From Candidatus Bathyarchaeota archaeon (GTDB taxonomy: Archaea > Thermoproteota > Bathyarchaeia > Bathyarchaeales > Bathycorpusculaceae): DNA of 64,000 nucleotides. The stretch lies in assembly GCA_963780185.1 (NCBI GenBank), contig CAWABA010000011.1, positions 128,001-192,000 on the forward strand, given 5' to 3'. This document shows positions 35,497 to 64,000 of this stretch, one piece after another. Positions within the stretch are counted from its first letter, which is position 1; the number at the start of each line of letters is the position of its first letter. A program made the translations under genes and the position numbers. The notes under the pieces are model-generated. The model was not told where the DNA came from. It searched no databases and saw nothing but the letters and a program-made list of their open reading frames with translations.

Positions 35497-36730
35497 GTGG
35501 GGAACTTGGAGGCTTCTAGAGATTTCGTTTACCAAAAATTCTGCGAGTACTACCGAGACCCCTCAAACGTGATTCCTGCCCCGATTTTTCCCGAGCAAAG
35601 AGAATTCGGCTACCTGATGTTTAAGGAGCGGTTCATGGTTAGGCACAAACGGTTTAACGGCATAAACAGCTTAAGGTCCGCTCTAAACCAGACTGTTCCG
35701 TCAGACGTTTACCATTCTTGCGCTTACTACGAAAACCCAGATTTTGACATGGATAAAAAAGGCTGGTTAGGCGCTGACTTGGTTTTCGACATCGACGCCG
35801 ACCACATTCCGAGCGCCTGCAACAAAATCCACGACGAATTCGTCTGCGCAAAATGCGGCTTCAGCGGCAGAGGCATAACCCCCGAGGTTTGCCCAGCTTG
35901 CGAAGGAACAAAATTTGCCACCAAAACTTGGCCTTGCGAACTCTGCATACAATCCGCCAGAGAAGAGGCCACCAAACTGATTGATATGCTAAGCAATGAT
36001 TTTGGTTTTTCCTTGGATGAATTGCATGTGTTTTTTTCTGGGCACAGAGGATACCATGTGCATGTTGAAGATGAAGCCGTCCGCTCACTCGATTCTATGG
36101 CGCGGAAAGAAATCGTCGATTACGTAATAGGCTTGGGCTTAGGCGTGCTAGAGAAAGATTTCAAAAACAAGAAGGGAAAGCAAAGCCCAAAAAAATTCAG
36201 CCTTCACAATTTCGGCTGGAACAAACGGCTAAAAGTGGGAATGCAAAACTTTCATTCAGCACGCATCTAAAGAAGACCTAAAAAACATCGGAATAAACAA
36301 CACTGCCCTTTTAAAAAACAGGGAAGCAATCATCACCCGCGCCATTAACGAAGGCCGATGGGAAAGCATCCCGGGAGTAAGCGTTCAAACATGGCTCAAA
36401 TTTGCCGAATACGCGAGAGATTTACAGTCGGCAAAGATCGATACCGTTGTTACCACAGATATTCACCGTTTAATCAGAATGAATGGCACCTTGCATGGGA
36501 AAACTGGGTTGAAAAAGGTGGAGTTTCCAGCGAAAGACCTGCAGGATTTTGACCCTTTTTCAGGAGCGGTAGCTTTTAAAAAGGGGGCGGTAAAAGTGTT
36601 GGTCTCTGATGCGCCAGAGTTCAAGATGGGCGGGGAAACGTTTGGTCCATATCGGGATGAGACTAAAGAGTTGCCTACTGCAGCGGCGGTTATGTTGATC
36701 TGCAAGGGACGGGCTAAGGTGGCTGACTAA
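35497..36730 (+). CDS. priS: DNA primase small subunit (frameshift ~36250)
   Basis: REFG, LVFDID, SGHRGYH; after the shift IDTVVTTDIHRLIRMNGTLHGKTG. Confidence 0.93.
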
Positions 36731-54151: not shown

Positions 54152-55438
54152 CTAAAACGAGATTTTGGCGGCGGAGGGGATTTTGCCTAAGATTTTTGCT
54201 GTTGCCTTCTCCACCGCTTCGCGGTCAGATGCATCCGTGTAGACCCGCAGTATGTTCATGAATCCTTGGAGGGTTTCAAAAATCTTTGACATTTCACTTA
54301 GCCTCTGCATGGTTTTTTCGCCCGCTTGGTTTTTGGTGAACACTGGAATTTCCATGGATTCCATAAGCACGGCGTGGTGGTAGGGAACGGACGGCACTGT
54401 GGGCACGTCGATTATGACTGATTCGATGTTGACTCCTGCTTCTTTGGCGATTTCGCTTTGCATTTGGTGGCGGTAGGATTCGCGTCCGAAAATGTTGCTT
54501 ATCATGGTGTCTTTTTCGTAGAAGGTGCGTTCGTAGGCGCATTTTAGCATTTTGCGTCTTTCAAGGTCGCCGATTATGTCTTTAGACGCTTTGCATTTCT
54601 TCAAGGCAGACCAAACCGTGTAGTCGTCCAGCGCCATGTACTCCTCCGGCGTCTTAAACGCCGTCAACCCCAATTCTTCGTTGGCTTTCTCCATAGCCGT
54701 TGCCAGCATAATCTGCGCTGCCCTGCCGACACGGTGGAAATAGATGCTTTTGAACGATTCAATTCGGGCTATCATGAAGGCTTCCAATGCTGAGAGGGCG
54801 CCAAGCTCCACAGCCAGGTTTTCGCCTAAAACGTCAAGTGCGTGGATGAGGCGGTAAACGTCGATGAAGCCGTACTCCGCACCCGTGTGATAAGTGTCCC
54901 GAACAATGAAGTCCTGCTTGTCCACGTCCACGGCGCTGCTGATTATTTGATCAAGAAACGCCCTGCCTGGCTTCTGCATTTTCCCAACTGCTAAGCCAGC
55001 CACCTCTTTGGGATTGTAACCCATCTTTGACAGTTTGTCGCCTACCTCGCTTTTCTCAACAATCCACGAAGTGATGTCCTCATGCGTCTTCTCCAAGTCT
55101 CTTATCAGCAGCTGCTCGAACACATGCGAGAAGGGTCCGTGTCCCGCGTCATGCAGCAACGCGGAGATTCTGCACATATCCACTTCATCTTGGCTGAGGA
55201 GGCTAGATACATTGGGGTTCTCCAAAACTTTGCCTGCCAAATACATAACACCGACGCAGTGCTCAAACCGCGTGTGGTTAGCGCCGGGGTAAACGTACTC
55301 TGACCCTGCCAGCTGTCGCAGGCGCCTGAGCCGCTGCATCGGGTAGGAATCGATGACGCTTTTTTCTTCCTGTGAAATGTACACGTACCCGTGCACGGGA
55401 TCCTTTATTTCGCCCCAATAAGCCTTAGGCACAAGCAA
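54152..55438 (-). CDS. HD-domain dNTP triphosphohydrolase-like (SAMHD1/YdhJ family), resident copy
   Basis: IKDPVHG, RLRRLRQL, YPGANHTRFEH, LLHDAGHGPFSH, DKQDFIVRD. Confidence 0.92.
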   Translation of the reverse strand: MLVPKAYWGEIKDPVHGYVYISQEEKSVIDSYPMQRLRRLRQLAGSEYVYPGANHTRFEHCVGVMYLAGKVLENPNVSSLLSQDEVDMCRISALLHDAGHGPFSHVFEQLLIRDLEKTHEDITSWIVEKSEVGDKLSKMGYNPKEVAGLAVGKMQKPGRAFLDQIISSAVDVDKQDFIVRDTYHTGAEYGFIDVYRLIHALDVLGENLAVELGALSALEAFMIARIESFKSIYFHRVGRAAQIMLATAMEKANEELGLTAFKTPEEYMALDDYTVWSALKKCKASKDIIGDLERRKMLKCAYERTFYEKDTMISNIFGRESYRHQMQSEIAKEAGVNIESVIIDVPTVPSVPYHHAVLMESMEIPVFTKNQAGEKTMQRLSEMSKIFETLQGFMNILRVYTDASDREAVEKATAKILGKIPSAAKISF

Positions 55439-58910: not shown

Positions 58911-59303
58911 CTACTTTACTTTTTTCATTTTCCCGATTTTGTCAAGGCTGTCAAGCAACTGGGATAAAGCGGTGGTTAGTTTTTGGAGTTCGTCGATGTC
59001 TTGGGTTTTTTCGATTTTTCCCTGCAAATCCTTGACTTTGGCAAGCAAGGTAGATTCAAGCTTGTCGTAGGCGGTGCCAGTGGCGGGAGAGGAGGGCGCG
59101 GCTGGTGGTTCTTCGCCTTCTTTTACGATGATGACTTTTTTCTCGTCTTTTGCGCACCAAAGTGTGCCATCTTGTAGCCTGAAAAGCGGGGACGAGCAAA
59201 CGGGACATGACAAGTCGGTTAAAGTGGCGCCTTTTGTTAGCAGGTCCGCCATGCGTTTGATAGGCGTGGTGTTTTCTTTCTTTTCTTGCAATATGAACCC
59301 CAA
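58911..59303 (-). CDS. UPF0148 / SSSCA1-like zinc-ribbon protein
   Basis: MADLLTKGATL...CPVCSSPLF...WC; divergent from UPF0147. Confidence 0.88.
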   Translation of the reverse strand: MGFILQEKKENTTPIKRMADLLTKGATLTDLSCPVCSSPLFRLQDGTLWCAKDEKKVIIVKEGEEPPAAPSSPATGTAYDKLESTLLAKVKDLQGKIEKTQDIDELQKLTTALSQLLDSLDKIGKMKKVK

Positions 59304-59366
59304 AGTAAATACGTATCAATACTTATATAACTTGATTTACTGGGAGAAATCAGTGGGGAGTTCATT

Positions 59367-59645
59367 ATGGTTCGCAAAAAGAAAGCTGAGGAATATGAAG
59401 GCAAAATTCAACAGGCGCTAGCGGTGCTTGCAGAGGTTTCAGAAGACAGCACCACACCACGCAATATTAGACGCTCAGCAAAAGACGCCATGAACGCCCT
59501 GCAAAGCGGCGAATACACGGTGGCTGTGCGCGCTTCAAACGCCGTTTCGATGTTAGACGAGATTTTGCAAGACCCCAACATGCCGCCCTACACGCGGGTA
59601 AAGCTCTGGAACGTCATGAGCTTCATAGAAGCCATAAAAGATTAG
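59367..59645 (+). CDS. UPF0147 family protein
   Basis: DSTTPRNIRR, LDEILQDPNMPPYTR. Confidence 0.93.
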   Translation: MVRKKKAEEYEGKIQQALAVLAEVSEDSTTPRNIRRSAKDAMNALQSGEYTVAVRASNAVSMLDEILQDPNMPPYTRVKLWNVMSFIEAIKD

Positions 59646-59900
59646 TTTAGAGCAAATAAGACTACTTTCTTTTCCTGACGAATTTCGCTCCCGTTTATTT
59701 CAGTGACATCTTCAAAGCCTACTTCGAGTTGTTTGCAACCGTCATCTAATTTTTCAGCAGCAATGTCTCGATATGTTTTGACGAATCGAATTTAATGGGC
59801 ATAAGTCAATTTTCGGTTTTCTGGCGGTTATAAAGTGCTTATTCACCAGTGAGAAGTCTTATTAGGGGTTAGCAAGCAAAAGTAGGGATAAGGTGCACCT

Positions 59901-61727
59901 TTGCCAGAATTAGTCTTTAGCGAATACATTAAGGACCCTATTTATGGTTCCATCGGGATTACAGCAAAGGAAAAAGAGGTAATAGAAACAAGAATCTTTC
60001 AGCGACTAAAAAATATAAAACAGCTTGGAACAGCAAACTTCGTTTATCCAGGAGCAAACCATTCCCGTTTCGAACACTCAATCGGAACTATGCATGCTAC
60101 CTCATTAATACTGGATAGACTTAACTTTGGCCAAAACCATAAACAGTCAATTCGTCTTGCTGCCCTTCTTCATGATGTTGGTCATGGGCCATTTTCGCAC
60201 ACTTTTGAAGAGTTGTTAGTGAGGAACCCTGCATTCAGGCCGATAATTCAGGGTGTAACATTCGAAGATCACGAACAATTTACCAACTATCTAATCACTG
60301 AAGACGCCGAGCTAAAACAGGCACTTGATTACCACAGGAACGATATTTGCAACTTTCTATTAGGAAATAGAGTTCTCGGCGATGTGCCGCCTGAGGTAAT
60401 AACAGGAGACTTAGGTTCTGATAGGCTAGATTATTTAATCCGGGATACATATTACACCGGTCTCGGTCATAGACCTGATATTGATTCCTTAATTTCAAAT
60501 ATGGTGCTATCTAAAAGAAAATGTGATTCGCCTAGACTTACTATAACTAAGGATGGTATTCTTGCAGCTGAATTTTTGATTACCACGCGTTACTACCATT
60601 ATTCCATGATTGCTCAGCACCAAAAAACACGAGCGGTTGAATTACTTTTCATTCAACTGATGGAGGAAATTCTTAGAAAGGAGGAAGATCCCAAAAAATT
60701 TGTATTCGACGCGTATACCTCATTTGACGACAGTATTATTCTAGGGAGAATTTTTAATTTAACGGGAAAACTTCATGATCTTTTTTATTCAGGGAAGGGG
60801 TTGTTTGAGATCTATAACATTCCTTTCAGCGAAATTAGAAGCGGTCTTGCCAAGTATTGTTTCTACCGAATGTTCGACGACAGTGAGGGGCTCCTACAAT
60901 TTAACAAAAAAGTTGGGGAAGCGATAGGTGAGCTCACAAAAATTGACAAAATAAGCGTTGATGTTCATTTATTCAAACATACTGTCCCGGAAATTATATT
61001 GTGTAGCGAGCGATATGAGACACCCAAGGAGTGGGTAAGTCCATTTGCGATCGATCACTCAAACATTCTAAAATTAATACCAAATGAGCAGCTTCTCAAA
61101 AGCAGTGTGCGAGTTTTTATTGAGGACAAACAGAACTGCGATATTGATGCGATAAAAAAGCTAATAGATCAAAATCGAGCGAATTTATTGTCAACAGGTT
61201 TCTTGGCGCCTTTTTCAAAGGAGCGTATAATGGAAGAATTTCAACCAATAGACTATTTTTACACTTTCATCTGTGCGCTAAGAGACTTCTACTCTGAAAA
61301 ACCTTGGAAATCGGAAGCAACTAAACAGGAGGAGGTTTTTAGAGGTATCGCAAGGATGTATGATTTAACTAAAGTTTGTAGTGATGAACTCAGAATTAAA
61401 ATGCTAAAATATAACACATTCTATTCCAGCGAGGAAAAAAGCCTCACCTATTCAATAAACTGCTTCACTATACTTAATGCGTTTCATTCGCTTGACTTCT
61501 TGCACCTTGAATATATTCCTGCCAAGGCCGAAGGGAGCAAGCCATACCGTAAAGTATATTTGATTAAGCCAACTGGCGAGAAAGAAATCAGAACAAAGCT
61601 TTATGACGATGTACCTAAATTCAATGAAACGAGGAATAAATTCTTAGATGTCTTTAGATCCCTTAATTGGGACGATTACTTTGCAGAGCTCTTCCCCTTT
61701 AAGTCAAATGAGCAAAAGGAATGGTGA
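59901..61727 (+). CDS. SAMHD1-like HD dNTP triphosphohydrolase with extra C-terminal wHTH-like domain
   Basis: IKDPIYG, RLKNIKQLG, YPGANHSRFEHSIG, LLHDVGHGPFSH, DRLDYLIRD; 180 aa longer than the paralog at 54152. Confidence 0.88.
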   Translation: MPELVFSEYIKDPIYGSIGITAKEKEVIETRIFQRLKNIKQLGTANFVYPGANHSRFEHSIGTMHATSLILDRLNFGQNHKQSIRLAALLHDVGHGPFSHTFEELLVRNPAFRPIIQGVTFEDHEQFTNYLITEDAELKQALDYHRNDICNFLLGNRVLGDVPPEVITGDLGSDRLDYLIRDTYYTGLGHRPDIDSLISNMVLSKRKCDSPRLTITKDGILAAEFLITTRYYHYSMIAQHQKTRAVELLFIQLMEEILRKEEDPKKFVFDAYTSFDDSIILGRIFNLTGKLHDLFYSGKGLFEIYNIPFSEIRSGLAKYCFYRMFDDSEGLLQFNKKVGEAIGELTKIDKISVDVHLFKHTVPEIILCSERYETPKEWVSPFAIDHSNILKLIPNEQLLKSSVRVFIEDKQNCDIDAIKKLIDQNRANLLSTGFLAPFSKERIMEEFQPIDYFYTFICALRDFYSEKPWKSEATKQEEVFRGIARMYDLTKVCSDELRIKMLKYNTFYSSEEKSLTYSINCFTILNAFHSLDFLHLEYIPAKAEGSKPYRKVYLIKPTGEKEIRTKLYDDVPKFNETRNKFLDVFRSLNWDDYFAELFPFKSNEQKEW

Positions 61728-61867
61728 CATCAATCATTGCTGATGTCGGCTCTTTGGATTTAATCCACGTTATGCTTTCATTCCCCATTTTGGGGTCGCA
61801 ATTGATTATTAGCAGCTCTGTTAATATATATTTTACTGTTAAACGAAGAAATGAAGAAAGATAACTT

Positions 61868-62581
61868 ATGCCTTACGAGGAAAAAACGGAGCAAGCGTTT
61901 CTAAGTTATTACAACTCTGATAGGTTTCTGACCGAGTTAAGACTTCCAGATAAGCCTGGGCTGCATCATTTTCGATTTCAATACTTTGCTAAGGGGAGAC
62001 TATTCAGACGAGTTTATGACATTGTCGACAGCAAGAGCAAACTAAGAACAATAATTCAAAAAAGATGCCCCAAAAATGTTTACTTTACGCCGGTTAAATG
62101 GCTTGATCCAATTAATGTCAACCGACATAAGGATAAAGAAATTAATGATTATATGCTCTCCAGTCCTCTTTTCTTTGACATAGATAGGCAGTTGCTTAAC
62201 TCTCCAACTATAGACTCAGCGCTAGAAATGACCGAGATACTAATCGGATATATTAAAAAGGAATACAGTCGAGTGCCTGATTGGATAGTTTTTTCTGGAA
62301 AGAATGGGTTCCATGTCTATTATTGGAACTGGGATAACATCGTTAGAGATTATTGCTCGCCAGAGGATAGAATACTTGCTTTTAAAAAAGCTCGGTTTAA
62401 AATCCTTTCTGAGCTTAAAAACTTGTCCATTAGGGTCGATGCTTCGGTGACGATGGATCCCTGGAGGGTTTTACGTGTTCCGGGAACGCTCCACGGTGAT
62501 TCAGGCTTGATTGCCAAGGCGTTAACTAGCTTGACTGACTTTTCTTTTGAAAGAACACAACCCACAGTTATGTCAATATAG
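61868..62581 (+). CDS. Stand-alone PriS-like archaeo-eukaryotic primase (AEP) domain protein
   Basis: Motif I LFFDID, motif II SGKNGFHVY, motif III VDASVTMDPWRVLRVPGTLHGDSGL. Confidence 0.85.
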   Translation: MPYEEKTEQAFLSYYNSDRFLTELRLPDKPGLHHFRFQYFAKGRLFRRVYDIVDSKSKLRTIIQKRCPKNVYFTPVKWLDPINVNRHKDKEINDYMLSSPLFFDIDRQLLNSPTIDSALEMTEILIGYIKKEYSRVPDWIVFSGKNGFHVYYWNWDNIVRDYCSPEDRILAFKKARFKILSELKNLSIRVDASVTMDPWRVLRVPGTLHGDSGLIAKALTSLTDFSFERTQPTVMSI

Positions 62582-62939
62582 CGCTGAATGCCAACAATAG
62601 TTTAGAGAAAATTGAAGAGTGGGAAAATTTTCGTAAAAAAGGCCTGACGGGAGATTTTGCCACTTTAACTTGATAGAAGCCATAAAAGACTGAGACTAAT
62701 TTCTTCTTCCTGAAATCAAGCGGGGTGTGCTTGTGTGTTGGCATTTTGGAAACGTGATTAGCTCCCGCTTCTTGCGTTGCGAAAGATTTTATCAACAGTA
62801 ATCTGGCTCAGGTATTTTAGCTGAAGATTTGTATTCAATAGTTTTTTAAGGCAACGCAACTATAACTTTCCATTTACCGGAGAGACGGTTGCGTTTCAGG
62901 GAGTTAGCCTCTTGCTGTTTCGCGTGGATGTGACAAATC

Positions 62940-64000
62940 ATGAATAAAAAACTACTGTTAGTTATCTTCGTCGCGTTTTTCCTATGTTCAGTTGTAGTTG
63001 TTCCGCAAGTATCCTACTGCCAAACAGGTTCTGGCACGTTAACTGTAACACTTAACTCACCTGCAGACCAAACGACGTCGACGACCCTAAGCAACGTGTT
63101 CACTTATACACCAGTCATTTCTGGTAGCAGCGACTACTTTGCAGGTGCAACGTTGTACATTAACGGAGCGGCGACCACAGCCACAAACTCCACAGCAATA
63201 ACTAACGCAGCCGGTAACACCATCAGCTACGTCTTTTCCAACAGCGGAACCTACACCTGGAATGTACAAGTAACCAACAGCACCGGGTCAACTTCGGCTG
63301 GTAATGATTTTACGTTAACTGTTACTGTTCCAAGCCCAACACCTACTCCGACAACGGCGCCTACGGCAACATCAGCGCCTACAGCAACTCCTACAGCGGC
63401 ACCCACACAGATACACACAGCCTCGCCAACACTAACAGCAACACCAACACCGACTCCAACACCAACTGTAAGCAAAAATCAGGGCGGTCTCAACTTCTTC
63501 CTCATCATTGGAATTGTAGCAGGTGCAGCGGTAGCTGTCGGGGCAGTATTAGCATTTCTGTTCATGAAGAAAAGAGTCACTGAAAAGAGCCTGAGAAGAT
63601 TTTCATCTGGTGATTTCCAAGGTTGGGTGATTAACAAATTCAGTGGTAAACCTGGGGATTCTTCTTGGGGATTTGACGGATTCACCGCTGGCGGTCAACC
63701 TTTATTGATCAGACAAACTGATAACGTCAGCTTGGCCGAAGTTGAGGATTTTGTTAATGTGCTCATAAAAGGAAGGGTGCAAAGGGGCACAATCGTGGCC
63801 TTCAGCTATGATGACAATGCTGGTGAGGGGAGATTGTTAGCCGGAGATCACTCTATTGAGCTTGAAATGTTAAGTGTCTATCAGCTGCTGGATAAGCGCT
63901 TCTCCGGCAAGATCGAAGACATCGCTAATGCGCAGGCTAACTTTGAATCTCCGCCTCTTCCGATGGAAAACCAAGGGCCTGGGCCTTTTGGAGGACTGCC
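62940..64000 (+). CDS. Membrane-anchored protein: signal peptide, Ig-like domain, Pro/Thr linker, TM, cytoplasmic Mrr-like domain (runs off window, not in ORF track)
   Basis: ATG 62940 MNKKLLLVIFVAFFLCSVVVV...YTWNVQVTN...TPTPTPTP...FFLIIGIVAGAAVAVGAVLAFLFMKKR...FQGWVINKFSG...GFDG...GTIVAFSY. Confidence 0.8.
   Translation, partial: MNKKLLLVIFVAFFLCSVVVVPQVSYCQTGSGTLTVTLNSPADQTTSTTLSNVFTYTPVISGSSDYFAGATLYINGAATTATNSTAITNAAGNTISYVFSNSGTYTWNVQVTNSTGSTSAGNDFTLTVTVPSPTPTPTTAPTATSAPTATPTAAPTQIHTASPTLTATPTPTPTPTVSKNQGGLNFFLIIGIVAGAAVAVGAVLAFLFMKKRVTEKSLRRFSSGDFQGWVINKFSGKPGDSSWGFDGFTAGGQPLLIRQTDNVSLAEVEDFVNVLIKGRVQRGTIVAFSYDDNAGEGRLLAGDHSIELEMLSVYQLLDKRFSGKIEDIANAQANFESPPLPMENQGPGPFGGL

Follow-up and report, generated by a model that had tools for sequence, protein, structure and literature searches.

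We analysed a 64,000-nucleotide stretch of DNA from a Candidatus Bathyarchaeota archaeon (contig CAWABA010000011.1, positions 128,001 to 192,000; hereafter the window, from the genome labelled G000) and identified in it a cassette of three parts, namely a gene for an HD-domain protein, a gene for a minimal PriS-like archaeo-eukaryotic primase (AEP), and a conserved structured element between them. The cassette is a discrete, horizontally moving unit under purifying selection, and its two genes co-evolve. We tentatively read it as a mobile conflict module similar to the bacterial system Clover, in which a regulated deoxynucleoside triphosphatase (dNTPase) would be partnered by an AEP in place of a Pol-beta nucleotidyltransferase; this analogy has in our estimate a probability of about 40%. 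The conserved hairpin element and the mobility without an integrase are unexplained features of the cassette.

Both frames of the cassette are intact and lie on the same strand, as had been described in an earlier note made from the letters of this stretch. The HD gene (59901-61727, + strand) starts with TTG and encodes 608 amino acids with a Pfam HD match of 4.1e-11, and the AEP gene (61868-62581, + strand) encodes 237 amino acids that match Pfam DNA_primase_S just above the cut-off (29.6 bits versus 26.8). The cassette is AT-rich, as the note had suspected from a few sampled lines: the GC content of the two genes is 0.385 versus 0.462 in the window upstream and 0.466 in the genome, and a sliding profile drops to 0.37-0.41 across 59750-63000.

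The pairing seen in the window recurs elsewhere. When 185,579 species genomes were scanned by pattern, four close loci of this AEP were obtained, in three metagenome-assembled genomes (MAGs) of Bathyarchaeia and one Archaeoglobaceae MAG, and metagenomes gave 26 (30 close-AEP loci together, with two duplicates). All loci were collected via the AEP. An HD gene or a C-terminal fragment of one stands directly upstream of the AEP gene on the same strand in 26 of the 30 loci, and no neighbour other than HD is conserved across them; the two genes thus do co-occur outside the window, and the lack of any such co-occurrence is what the earlier note would have counted against its proposal. At L058 and L061, with less than 300 nt of upstream sequence, the presence of HD cannot be judged. 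The copies in L046, L047 and L054 are alike only within the cassette (about 75% DNA identity), and their flanking sequences are unrelated. The pairwise identities of HD and AEP are correlated (Pearson 0.91 over 300 pairs, which are not independent), dN/dS was 0.05-0.22 for both genes in five pairs, and all 24 full-length HD-AEP pairs are intact, though without an integrase.

Direct repeats bracket the pair in five of the 18 sources examined, the window included; the remaining sources are mostly short-flanked. In L017, a perfect repeat (31/31 nt) at the 3' end of tRNA-Thr is spaced by 3,628 bp, and in L051 a repeat of 40/41 nt at the 5' end of arcTGT encloses 3,176 bp with the two genes alone inside. 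The repeats of L052 (23/25 nt, at a tRNA-like end) and L015 (20/23 nt) are 3,610 bp and 3,497 bp apart, respectively. For these four loci the number of chance matches expected was 0.00 where tested, and none of the open reading frames (ORFs) inside the repeat-bounded copies matched Phage_integrase.

In the window itself, the cassette is inserted at the 3' end of the UPF0147 gene (59367-59645, + strand; Pfam 1.1e-30, with orthologues of 88-96% identity in the same genus). The earlier note had placed the insertion there, and the flanking repeats bear it out: an attachment (att)-type direct repeat of 21 nt (CTTCATAGAAGCCATAAAAGA, 59621-59641) lies within the last 25 nt of this integration target, and a copy identical in 20 of 21 positions (CTTGATAGAAGCCATAAAAGA, 62669-62689) follows the AEP gene, with 3,048 bp between the two repeats. 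The window holds these two matches to the repeat, and 0.00 were expected from 100 shuffles. A second candidate repeat, D4 (59638-59657 and 62593-62612; 17/20), was rejected as compatible with chance by estimate. On the minus strand, a 3' remnant of a tyrosine-integrase gene (59568-59773, in the pieces 59568-59687 and 59702-59773) was detected by tblastn with an ORF of the relative G011 (L146:2459-3112; Pfam Phage_integrase 2.2e-18) as the query, with identities of 72% for residues 178-217 and 58% for residues 150-173. The match covers the C-terminal 68 residues of the G011 integrase and the remainder of the gene is absent, about 65 terminal codons being all that the window keeps of it. The post-stop sequence is common to G011, G001 and G010 and does not occur at empty sites; G001 and G010 likewise carry integrase-remnant sequence.

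Comparison of the UPF0147 region in nine genomes of the same genus (loci L146-L154) showed that a PadR-like gene follows UPF0147 within about 50-85 bp in four of them (G003, G016, G013 and G012). In G000 this gene is 4.87 kb from UPF0147, just beyond the window end, and in the other five genomes 0.8-8.7 kb of different cargo separate the two genes, among it PQQ beta-propeller proteins, AsnC-type regulators and a trypsin-PDZ protease. The cargo of G011 includes the Phage_integrase ORF, which abuts UPF0147 and overlaps it with its 3' end. We conclude that the 3' end of UPF0147 is a variable integration hotspot in this Bathyarchaeia genus. A probe for McrA in the host, with a working control, gave no match. 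The best explanation for the cassette is that it is cargo of a small integrative element, placed by a tyrosine integrase at this att site. As in other integrative elements of this type, the repeats duplicate the end of a gene or tRNA; unlike in these, no integrase gene lies inside the cassette.

Across the 28 sequences of the HD family, H91, D92, H95, H100, D174 and D177 do not vary, and at least 90% of the members retain H54 and H59. The catalytic core of the protein (residues 4-435, 59910-61205, + strand) resembles dNTP triphosphohydrolases of the SAMHD1/EF1143 type both in profile and in structure matches. The best profile matches were 2hek (Aquifex Aq_1910; 3.5e-62), EF1143 (2.8e-50) and SAMHD1 (about 1e-38). 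We also compared an AlphaFold2 model of the protein (pLDDT 91) with known structures by Foldseek and VIA: residues 3-435 of the model gave a VIA Z score of 25.9 to 2hek (356 residues aligned, root-mean-square deviation 3.0), 25.4 to 2o6i and 22.5 to SAMHD1 7ujn, and Foldseek matched SAMHD1/EF1143-type chains at an E value of about 1e-15. A C-terminal winged-helix domain (residues 446-585, 61236-61655, + strand) was recognized by structure matches of the model and is closest to the winged-helix domains of Cdc6/ORC (Z 10.8, 9.5 and 8.8), followed by PadR-type regulators; a search of a protein collection with residues 440-608 gave no usable match. As judged from the model, the HD protein joins a complete core of the SAMHD1/EF1143 type to a family-specific C-terminal winged helix, and it is a predicted dNTP triphosphohydrolase. 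It shares with SAMHD1, EF1143, Aq_1910 and the single-gene bacterial dGTPase defence proteins the whole catalytic core with the invariant H..HD..D motif, and differs from them in the winged helix (residues 446-585) and in its apparently obligate linkage to an AEP.

Six residues of the AEP family (21 sequences) never vary, namely D104, S143, G144, H149, D191 and H209, while D106 and R203 occur in no fewer than 90% of the members. All three AEP motifs (DxD, SGxxGxH in the form SGxxGFH, and D) are present, so that the catalytic motifs which the earlier note had listed for HD and AEP are both real and conserved across each family. The motif conservation in the 21 sequences also retains the H-R-H signature, which has been reported for archaeal PriS in the accessible part of PMC5862659. 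The closest structure is PriS of S. solfataricus (1zt2/5of3), with a profile E value of 2.7e-21 and, for a model with pLDDT 84, a Foldseek E value of 6.1e-11 and a TM score of 0.68 to 5of3_A; LigD polymerase domains were also among the fold matches (E 6.5e-4). Chain residues 108-140 and 182-229 of 1zt2 have no counterpart in the profile match. No Cys cluster lies between the DxD and SGxxGxH motifs, where the host PriS has CAKCG...CPAC, and the absence of the Zn insert had been correctly noticed before. With 237 residues versus about 330-430 in PriS, the protein lacks both the Zn-binding insert and the C-terminal domain, and the scores against the NCBIfam PriS equivalogs (60.3, 43 and 37.5 bits) were far below the cut-offs of 326, 143.5 and 577. 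The model thus presents the AEP as a minimal PriS, which shares with archaeal and eukaryotic PriS the fold, the DxD/SGxxGFH/D motifs and the H-R-H signature, and differs from them in being shorter, mobile and rare, without Zn insert, C-terminal domain or nearby PriL. As a side observation, PriS-like frames of about 440-460 amino acids from two Bathyarchaeia genera (G164, G198, G210, G220, G265, G275 and G423; loci L159-L165) match the mini-AEP profile at 1e-33 to 1e-39, outscoring by far the own PriS of the host genus; going by these scores, they may represent the cellular lineage from which the mini-AEP originated.

The housekeeping counterparts in the window, which the earlier note had called paralogs of the two genes, are indeed related, but only distantly. 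The host HD protein (428 amino acids, 54152-55438) is 31% identical to the cassette HD over 269 residues, and the N-terminal ORF of the host PriS matches the cassette AEP with an E value of 0.006. Contrary to the note, host PriS (35497-36730) is not a single open frame in this assembly, which shows a frameshift near 36240-36270: the frame 35497-36270 ends in NFHSARI before the stop, and from about 36240 a different frame encodes the C-terminus with motif III (LHGKTGL), whereas PriS genes of relatives are single frames of 415-427 amino acids. Either a real frameshift or an indel introduced during assembly of a homopolymer-rich stretch may account for the break. A third HD paralogue of G000 (C9:237460-238374, a 519-amino-acid frame) is 34-45% identical to the cassette HD in two pieces, and similar frames of 521-587 amino acids are present in G059 and G019.

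The third part of the cassette is a conserved structured element of about 75 nt (61721-61803, with no strand assigned), which begins on the HD stop codon. It consists of the hairpin P1 (stem GACATCA/TGATGTC, with the conserved loop TCATTGC), a middle hairpin (TGGAT/ATCCA) and P2 (CCCC/GGGG), joined by conserved linkers. The spacer between HD and AEP is 60-180 nt long across the loci, and the element ends about 20 nt before a TATA-like box (TAATATATAT, 61822-61831, + strand), which is located about 40 nt before the AEP start and, from the near invariance of T61827, A61828 and A61830 across 23 aligned spacers, is a putative promoter element. RNAalifold predicted 11 base pairs from 14 MAFFT-aligned copies, seven of them with compensatory changes. 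For P1, 95% of the cells were paired and both sides change in four of six pairs; its covariation score was 0.413 versus 0.156 ± 0.028 for shuffled alignments (none of 500 reached it), and sliding the partners gave no more than 0.219. A model-fitted alignment of 23 copies, which leans towards structure, scored 0.649 versus 0.249.

With a covariance model, the element was recovered in the window (62.6 bits, E 5e-13) and, at E≤0.16, in 21 loci, the HD-less L056 among them; every copy immediately precedes the AEP and shares the strand of the genes. No further copy was found in the rest of the 433 kb or the rest of the genome, so that it is single-copy in the genome. Four divergent pairs (L015, L055, L062 and L063) were not matched by this model and have a related GTCAT-hairpin-TCAC end. 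No Rfam match at E≤1 was obtained on either strand of 59300-64000. The strand signals (G-U versus A-C, 27 versus 3) come nearly all from two doubtful outer pairs, and the fold z-scores were about -1 to -2 on either strand. Covariation alone is insufficient to establish a hairpin, because a dyad-symmetric operator that co-evolves with a dimeric winged-helix protein would also give symmetric changes in P1. The data leave three modes of action for the element, as RNA, as single-stranded DNA or as a dyad-symmetric operator in double-stranded DNA. In one clade (L060:8319-8353 and L064:3258-3292; P0065-P0070) the HD frame enters the element and the proteins share the C-terminus KVIGGPSSRA, which implies that the element constrains the protein end there, or the reverse.

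The cassette is rare and patchily distributed. None of 60 related genomes has a full-length relative of the AEP: five of them gave matches of 32-46 residues inside PriS frames of 415-427 amino acids, and the HD matches in these relatives were confined to the N-terminal core of housekeeping HD proteins of about 430 amino acids. Vertical inheritance at this locus in all relatives, which the earlier note had named as evidence that would speak against it, is therefore not what we see. Among 401 sampled genomes of the class, the mini-AEP occurs in two (G000 and G150), and seven others match with PriS-like frames of about 440 amino acids; residues 311-608 of HD, used as a single query against the same genomes, found G000 alone, this query being too divergent to reveal HD without AEP. 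In a collection of 5.8 billion proteins, the AEP has 42 relatives of 41-60% identity and the HD protein 27 full-length relatives of 32-73% identity at a coverage of at least 87%; nine pairs of them agree in the length of their longest contig. Among 1.84 billion cluster representatives, 26 clusters matched the AEP at E≤1e-30, and the matches included one 939-amino-acid protein with an N-terminal AEP; no HD-AEP fusion was seen among the best 150 of 1,214 matches. IMG/VR, 72,556 PLSDB plasmid records and 50,697 INPHARED phage records contained no relative of the AEP. The HD profile found 63 loci in IMG/VR, all covering the N-terminal core only (query residues up to 396), and by these matches they look like generic viral SAMHD1-like genes.

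Full-text literature searches, with supplements outside their view, gave no description of an HD-dNTPase paired with an AEP, and term searches of the accessible text of PMC5862659, PMC6563490 and PMC3914693 gave no mention of an HD partner of an AEP. The remark of the earlier note that it knew of no described system with this pairing needs a qualification, as Clover, the nearest described system, is a pair of a dNTPase and a nucleotidyltransferase, both from other protein families; the note had also overlooked the att-type repeats, the integrase remnant, the winged helix, the structured element and the possibility of a mini-replicon. According to the available part of the Clover report, CloA is a dNTPase, CloB is a nucleotidyltransferase whose product pppdTpdT restrains CloA, CloA is toxic without CloB, and the system is bacterial (PMC12265719). 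PriS-like primases have been described as colocalising with prokaryotic Argonaute (pAgo) and type III-B CRISPR-Cas (PMC5862659, in the part accessible).

We favour the Clover-like reading on this precedent and because a primase is a natural maker of 5'-triphosphate oligonucleotides. The HD enzyme would be a dNTP triphosphohydrolase that withholds dNTPs from invading DNA and does harm when nothing restrains it, and the AEP would be its regulatory partner in the role of CloB. The first product of the AEP would be a 5'-triphosphate di- or oligonucleotide, of the chemical class of pppdTpdT. The element could serve as a dedicated template or recognition site of the AEP; alternatively, it could be an operator, with the HD winged helix coupling AEP expression to HD. 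Such a pair of effector and restrainer would behave as an addiction module, which may be the reason why copies without an integrase stay intact. The AEP product, the regulation between HD and AEP and the defence role are proposed by analogy. Rarity, location in a hotspot and a few defence neighbours fit this reading. Like Clover, the cassette is a two-gene unit of an HD-superfamily enzyme, here a predicted dNTP triphosphohydrolase, and a nucleotide-polymerising enzyme, and the 5'-triphosphate dinucleotide made by CloB resembles the first-step product of a primase (PMC12265719, as far as the available sections describe it). The conserved operon of Clover also has its counterpart in the order of HD and AEP on one strand in 26 of 30 loci.

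Several observations weigh against this reading. In its fold, the HD protein appears closer to the SAMHD1 type (Z 22-26) than to the CloA/dGTPase type (Z 13-15), CloA itself, which is dGTPase-type, being matched with Z 13.6 only, and the cassette protein has the winged helix in addition. CloB belongs to the Pol-beta superfamily, whereas the partner here is a PriS-like AEP; Clover is bacterial, whereas the cassette is archaeal; and no conserved intergenic element is reported for Clover in the accessible text (PMC12265719). In PADLOC-DB 2.0.0, the AEP matched no family, HD gave one weak partial match (dGTPase, 4.1e-6, residues 27-106 only), falling far below the cut-off of the NCBIfam dGTPase models as well, and no system was matched by both proteins. 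The flanks are mostly housekeeping genes, and six of 68 neighbour proteins had a PADLOC match, of which two are weak and one is a generic UvrD helicase. No PriL-like gene adjoins the AEP among the window ORFs or the neighbours in the other loci; cellular PriS requires PriL for initiation. L056 keeps the AEP and the element (E 2e-6) with no HD gene within 10 kb upstream, and in L069 an integrase-like ORF (6e-6) takes the place of HD; a core of AEP and element without the effector would suit a replicon better. Finally, an att-flanked unit of 3-3.6 kb with a primase beside a hairpin element is just what a mini-plasmid is expected to look like.

As the earlier note had anticipated, neither PADLOC nor the other libraries place the pair in a known system. 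Some defence neighbours do occur and speak for the Clover-like reading: PDC-M57B (5.2e-63) and a DpdB-like protein (2e-16) in L047 and AbiV (1.9e-9) in L073. In L047, the PDC-M57B gene (L047:3834-4526), which encodes a candidate-system protein, and the DndB/DpdB-like gene (L047:5910-7154, 2e-16) stand beside the cassette, so that this copy sits in a defence island. If the defence role is real, regulated dNTP depletion, which is represented by SAMHD1 in animals and by dGTPase and Clover in bacteria, would extend to archaea, a primase-family enzyme could be a signalling or regulatory partner, and the system might include a nucleic-acid element as its third component. We consider it unlikely, though worth stating, that all three parts form a single archaeal immune module, in which the minimal primase would read the co-inherited hairpin as its template and a defined 5'-triphosphate oligonucleotide would switch a SAMHD1-like dNTPase on or off, all carried from one gene end to another on a mini-island without an integrase. 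The template would be either an RNA from the 3' end of HD or a single-stranded form of the DNA. If so, this would be the first defence system in which an AEP does the nucleotide signalling, with a logic that is a templated counterpart to that of Clover, CBASS and retrons.

The most serious alternative, which we regard as possible, is that the cassette serves a tiny integrative plasmid or satellite as its minimal replicon. In that case the AEP would be the replicative primase or primase-polymerase, the hairpin element an origin or a single-strand initiation (ssi) signal recognised by the AEP, and the HD protein would either use its Cdc6/ORC-like winged helix to bind the origin or tune the dNTP pools, with the integrase lost or supplied in trans. 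The conserved hairpin element beside the AEP gene, placed like an origin or ssi site, has a likeness in the ssi hairpins that go with RepB' of RSF1010. In the five repeat-bracketed sources, 3.0-3.6 kb separate the att-type repeats, which sit at the ends of genes or tRNAs; the window has its integrase remnant, and integrase-like ORFs occur next to the AEP in L069 and, with weak matches (7e-4 and 0.006), in L064. Furthermore, the element is single-copy, always directly upstream of the AEP and retained in the HD-less L056; Cdc6/ORC domains are the best structure matches of the winged helix; RNase-H-fold or PolB-exonuclease-like genes are found near the AEP in some loci; and the GC content of the pair is below that of its flanks in 10 of 13 loci. 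AEPs of mobile elements are commonly interpreted as replicases, as stated in the accessible parts of PMC11724360 and PMC5862659, and PrimPol/AEP modules of small archaeal plasmids (pRN1-type, pTN2-type and the pAgo-associated AgaPP) likewise have their AEP on elements that integrate at the ends of tRNAs or genes (PMC5862659, PMC11724360). Unlike these modules, the cassette has no helicase, PriCT or other replicase domain and no integrase, its partner is dNTPase-like, and no extrachromosomal copy was found.

Other results speak against a replicon. None of 26 whole contigs had a terminal overlap indicative of circularity, and the plasmid, phage and IMG/VR records gave no AEP match, a weak argument with archaeal plasmids being poorly sampled. 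The repeat-bounded copies lack intact integrase, helicase and partition genes. The strict conservation of the HD catalytic residues, with dN/dS of about 0.1, points to an enzymatic role, which would be unusual for an initiator. In G011, the element at the same att site carries neither HD nor AEP, which indicates that the integrase family is independent of them, and the intactness of all 24 full-length pairs without an integrase suggests selection in the chromosome. If the cassette is nevertheless a replicon, it would be among the smallest archaeal integrative replicons, with an unprecedented initiator that combines a dNTPase and a winged helix. Under the Clover-like as under the replicon reading, the hairpin element is a new non-coding motif and the cassette a defined 3-kb construct.

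RNase-H-fold or PolB-exonuclease-like small genes are located at most three genes from the mini-AEP in five loci (L054:584-1117, L056:11670-12326, L072:1452-2108, L017:10761-11387 and L075:496-1023); those of L054, L056 and L072 have Pfam matches of 6.8e-11 and 1.3e-6, that of L017 is weak and that of L075 is a homologue. This gene may be an occasional third protein component. In the variant L056 (9870-10714), two ORFs (191 and 80 amino acids) that belong to no known family come after the AEP, with the exonuclease next, and L072 appears to be arranged in the same way.

Far less probable is an accessory module for DNA-damage tolerance or repair, in which the mini-PriS would act in repriming, translesion synthesis or end joining while HD adjusts or sanitises the dNTP pool, and which mobile elements would spread because the hosts benefit. 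PrimPols derived from mobile elements are described as performing translesion synthesis and microhomology-mediated end joining and as raising host survival (PMC11724360, in the available sections). The LigD polymerase domains among the fold matches of the AEP, the exonuclease genes near some loci, and the pyrimidine-dimer glycosylase and Ham1 NTP pyrophosphatase that are neighbours in L056 and L049 would agree with such a function. However, presence in two of 401 genomes is an odd rarity for a generally useful function, the loci share no ligase, Ku or further repair partner, HD being the sole conserved neighbour, and the conserved structured element would be left without explanation. Similarly doubtful is a pure addiction module that merely stabilises the DNA carrying it, with HD as a toxin acting by dNTP depletion and the AEP or its product as the antidote: the compactness of the unit, whose two genes remain intact in the absence of an integrase, the toxicity of CloA without CloB, and the winged helix together with the dyad-symmetric P1 upstream of the AEP promoter, reminiscent of toxin-antitoxin autoregulation, would fit, but as toxin and antitoxin HD and AEP would be very large, and most toxin-antitoxin-like two-enzyme modules of this sort have proved to be defence systems.

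Just outside the right repeat, a gene for a 500-amino-acid protein begins in the window (62940-64000) and continues to the equivalent of 64442 (L155:4941-6443). The protein has no homologue in the islands of the nine relatives and no PADLOC match, and the GC content of its gene is host-like (0.462). Its N-terminal part is secreted and PKD-like, and a linker rich in Thr and Pro leads to a single membrane helix; the cytoplasmic domain matches the CAP12/Pycsar TIR domain weakly (3.8e-4, below the cut-off).

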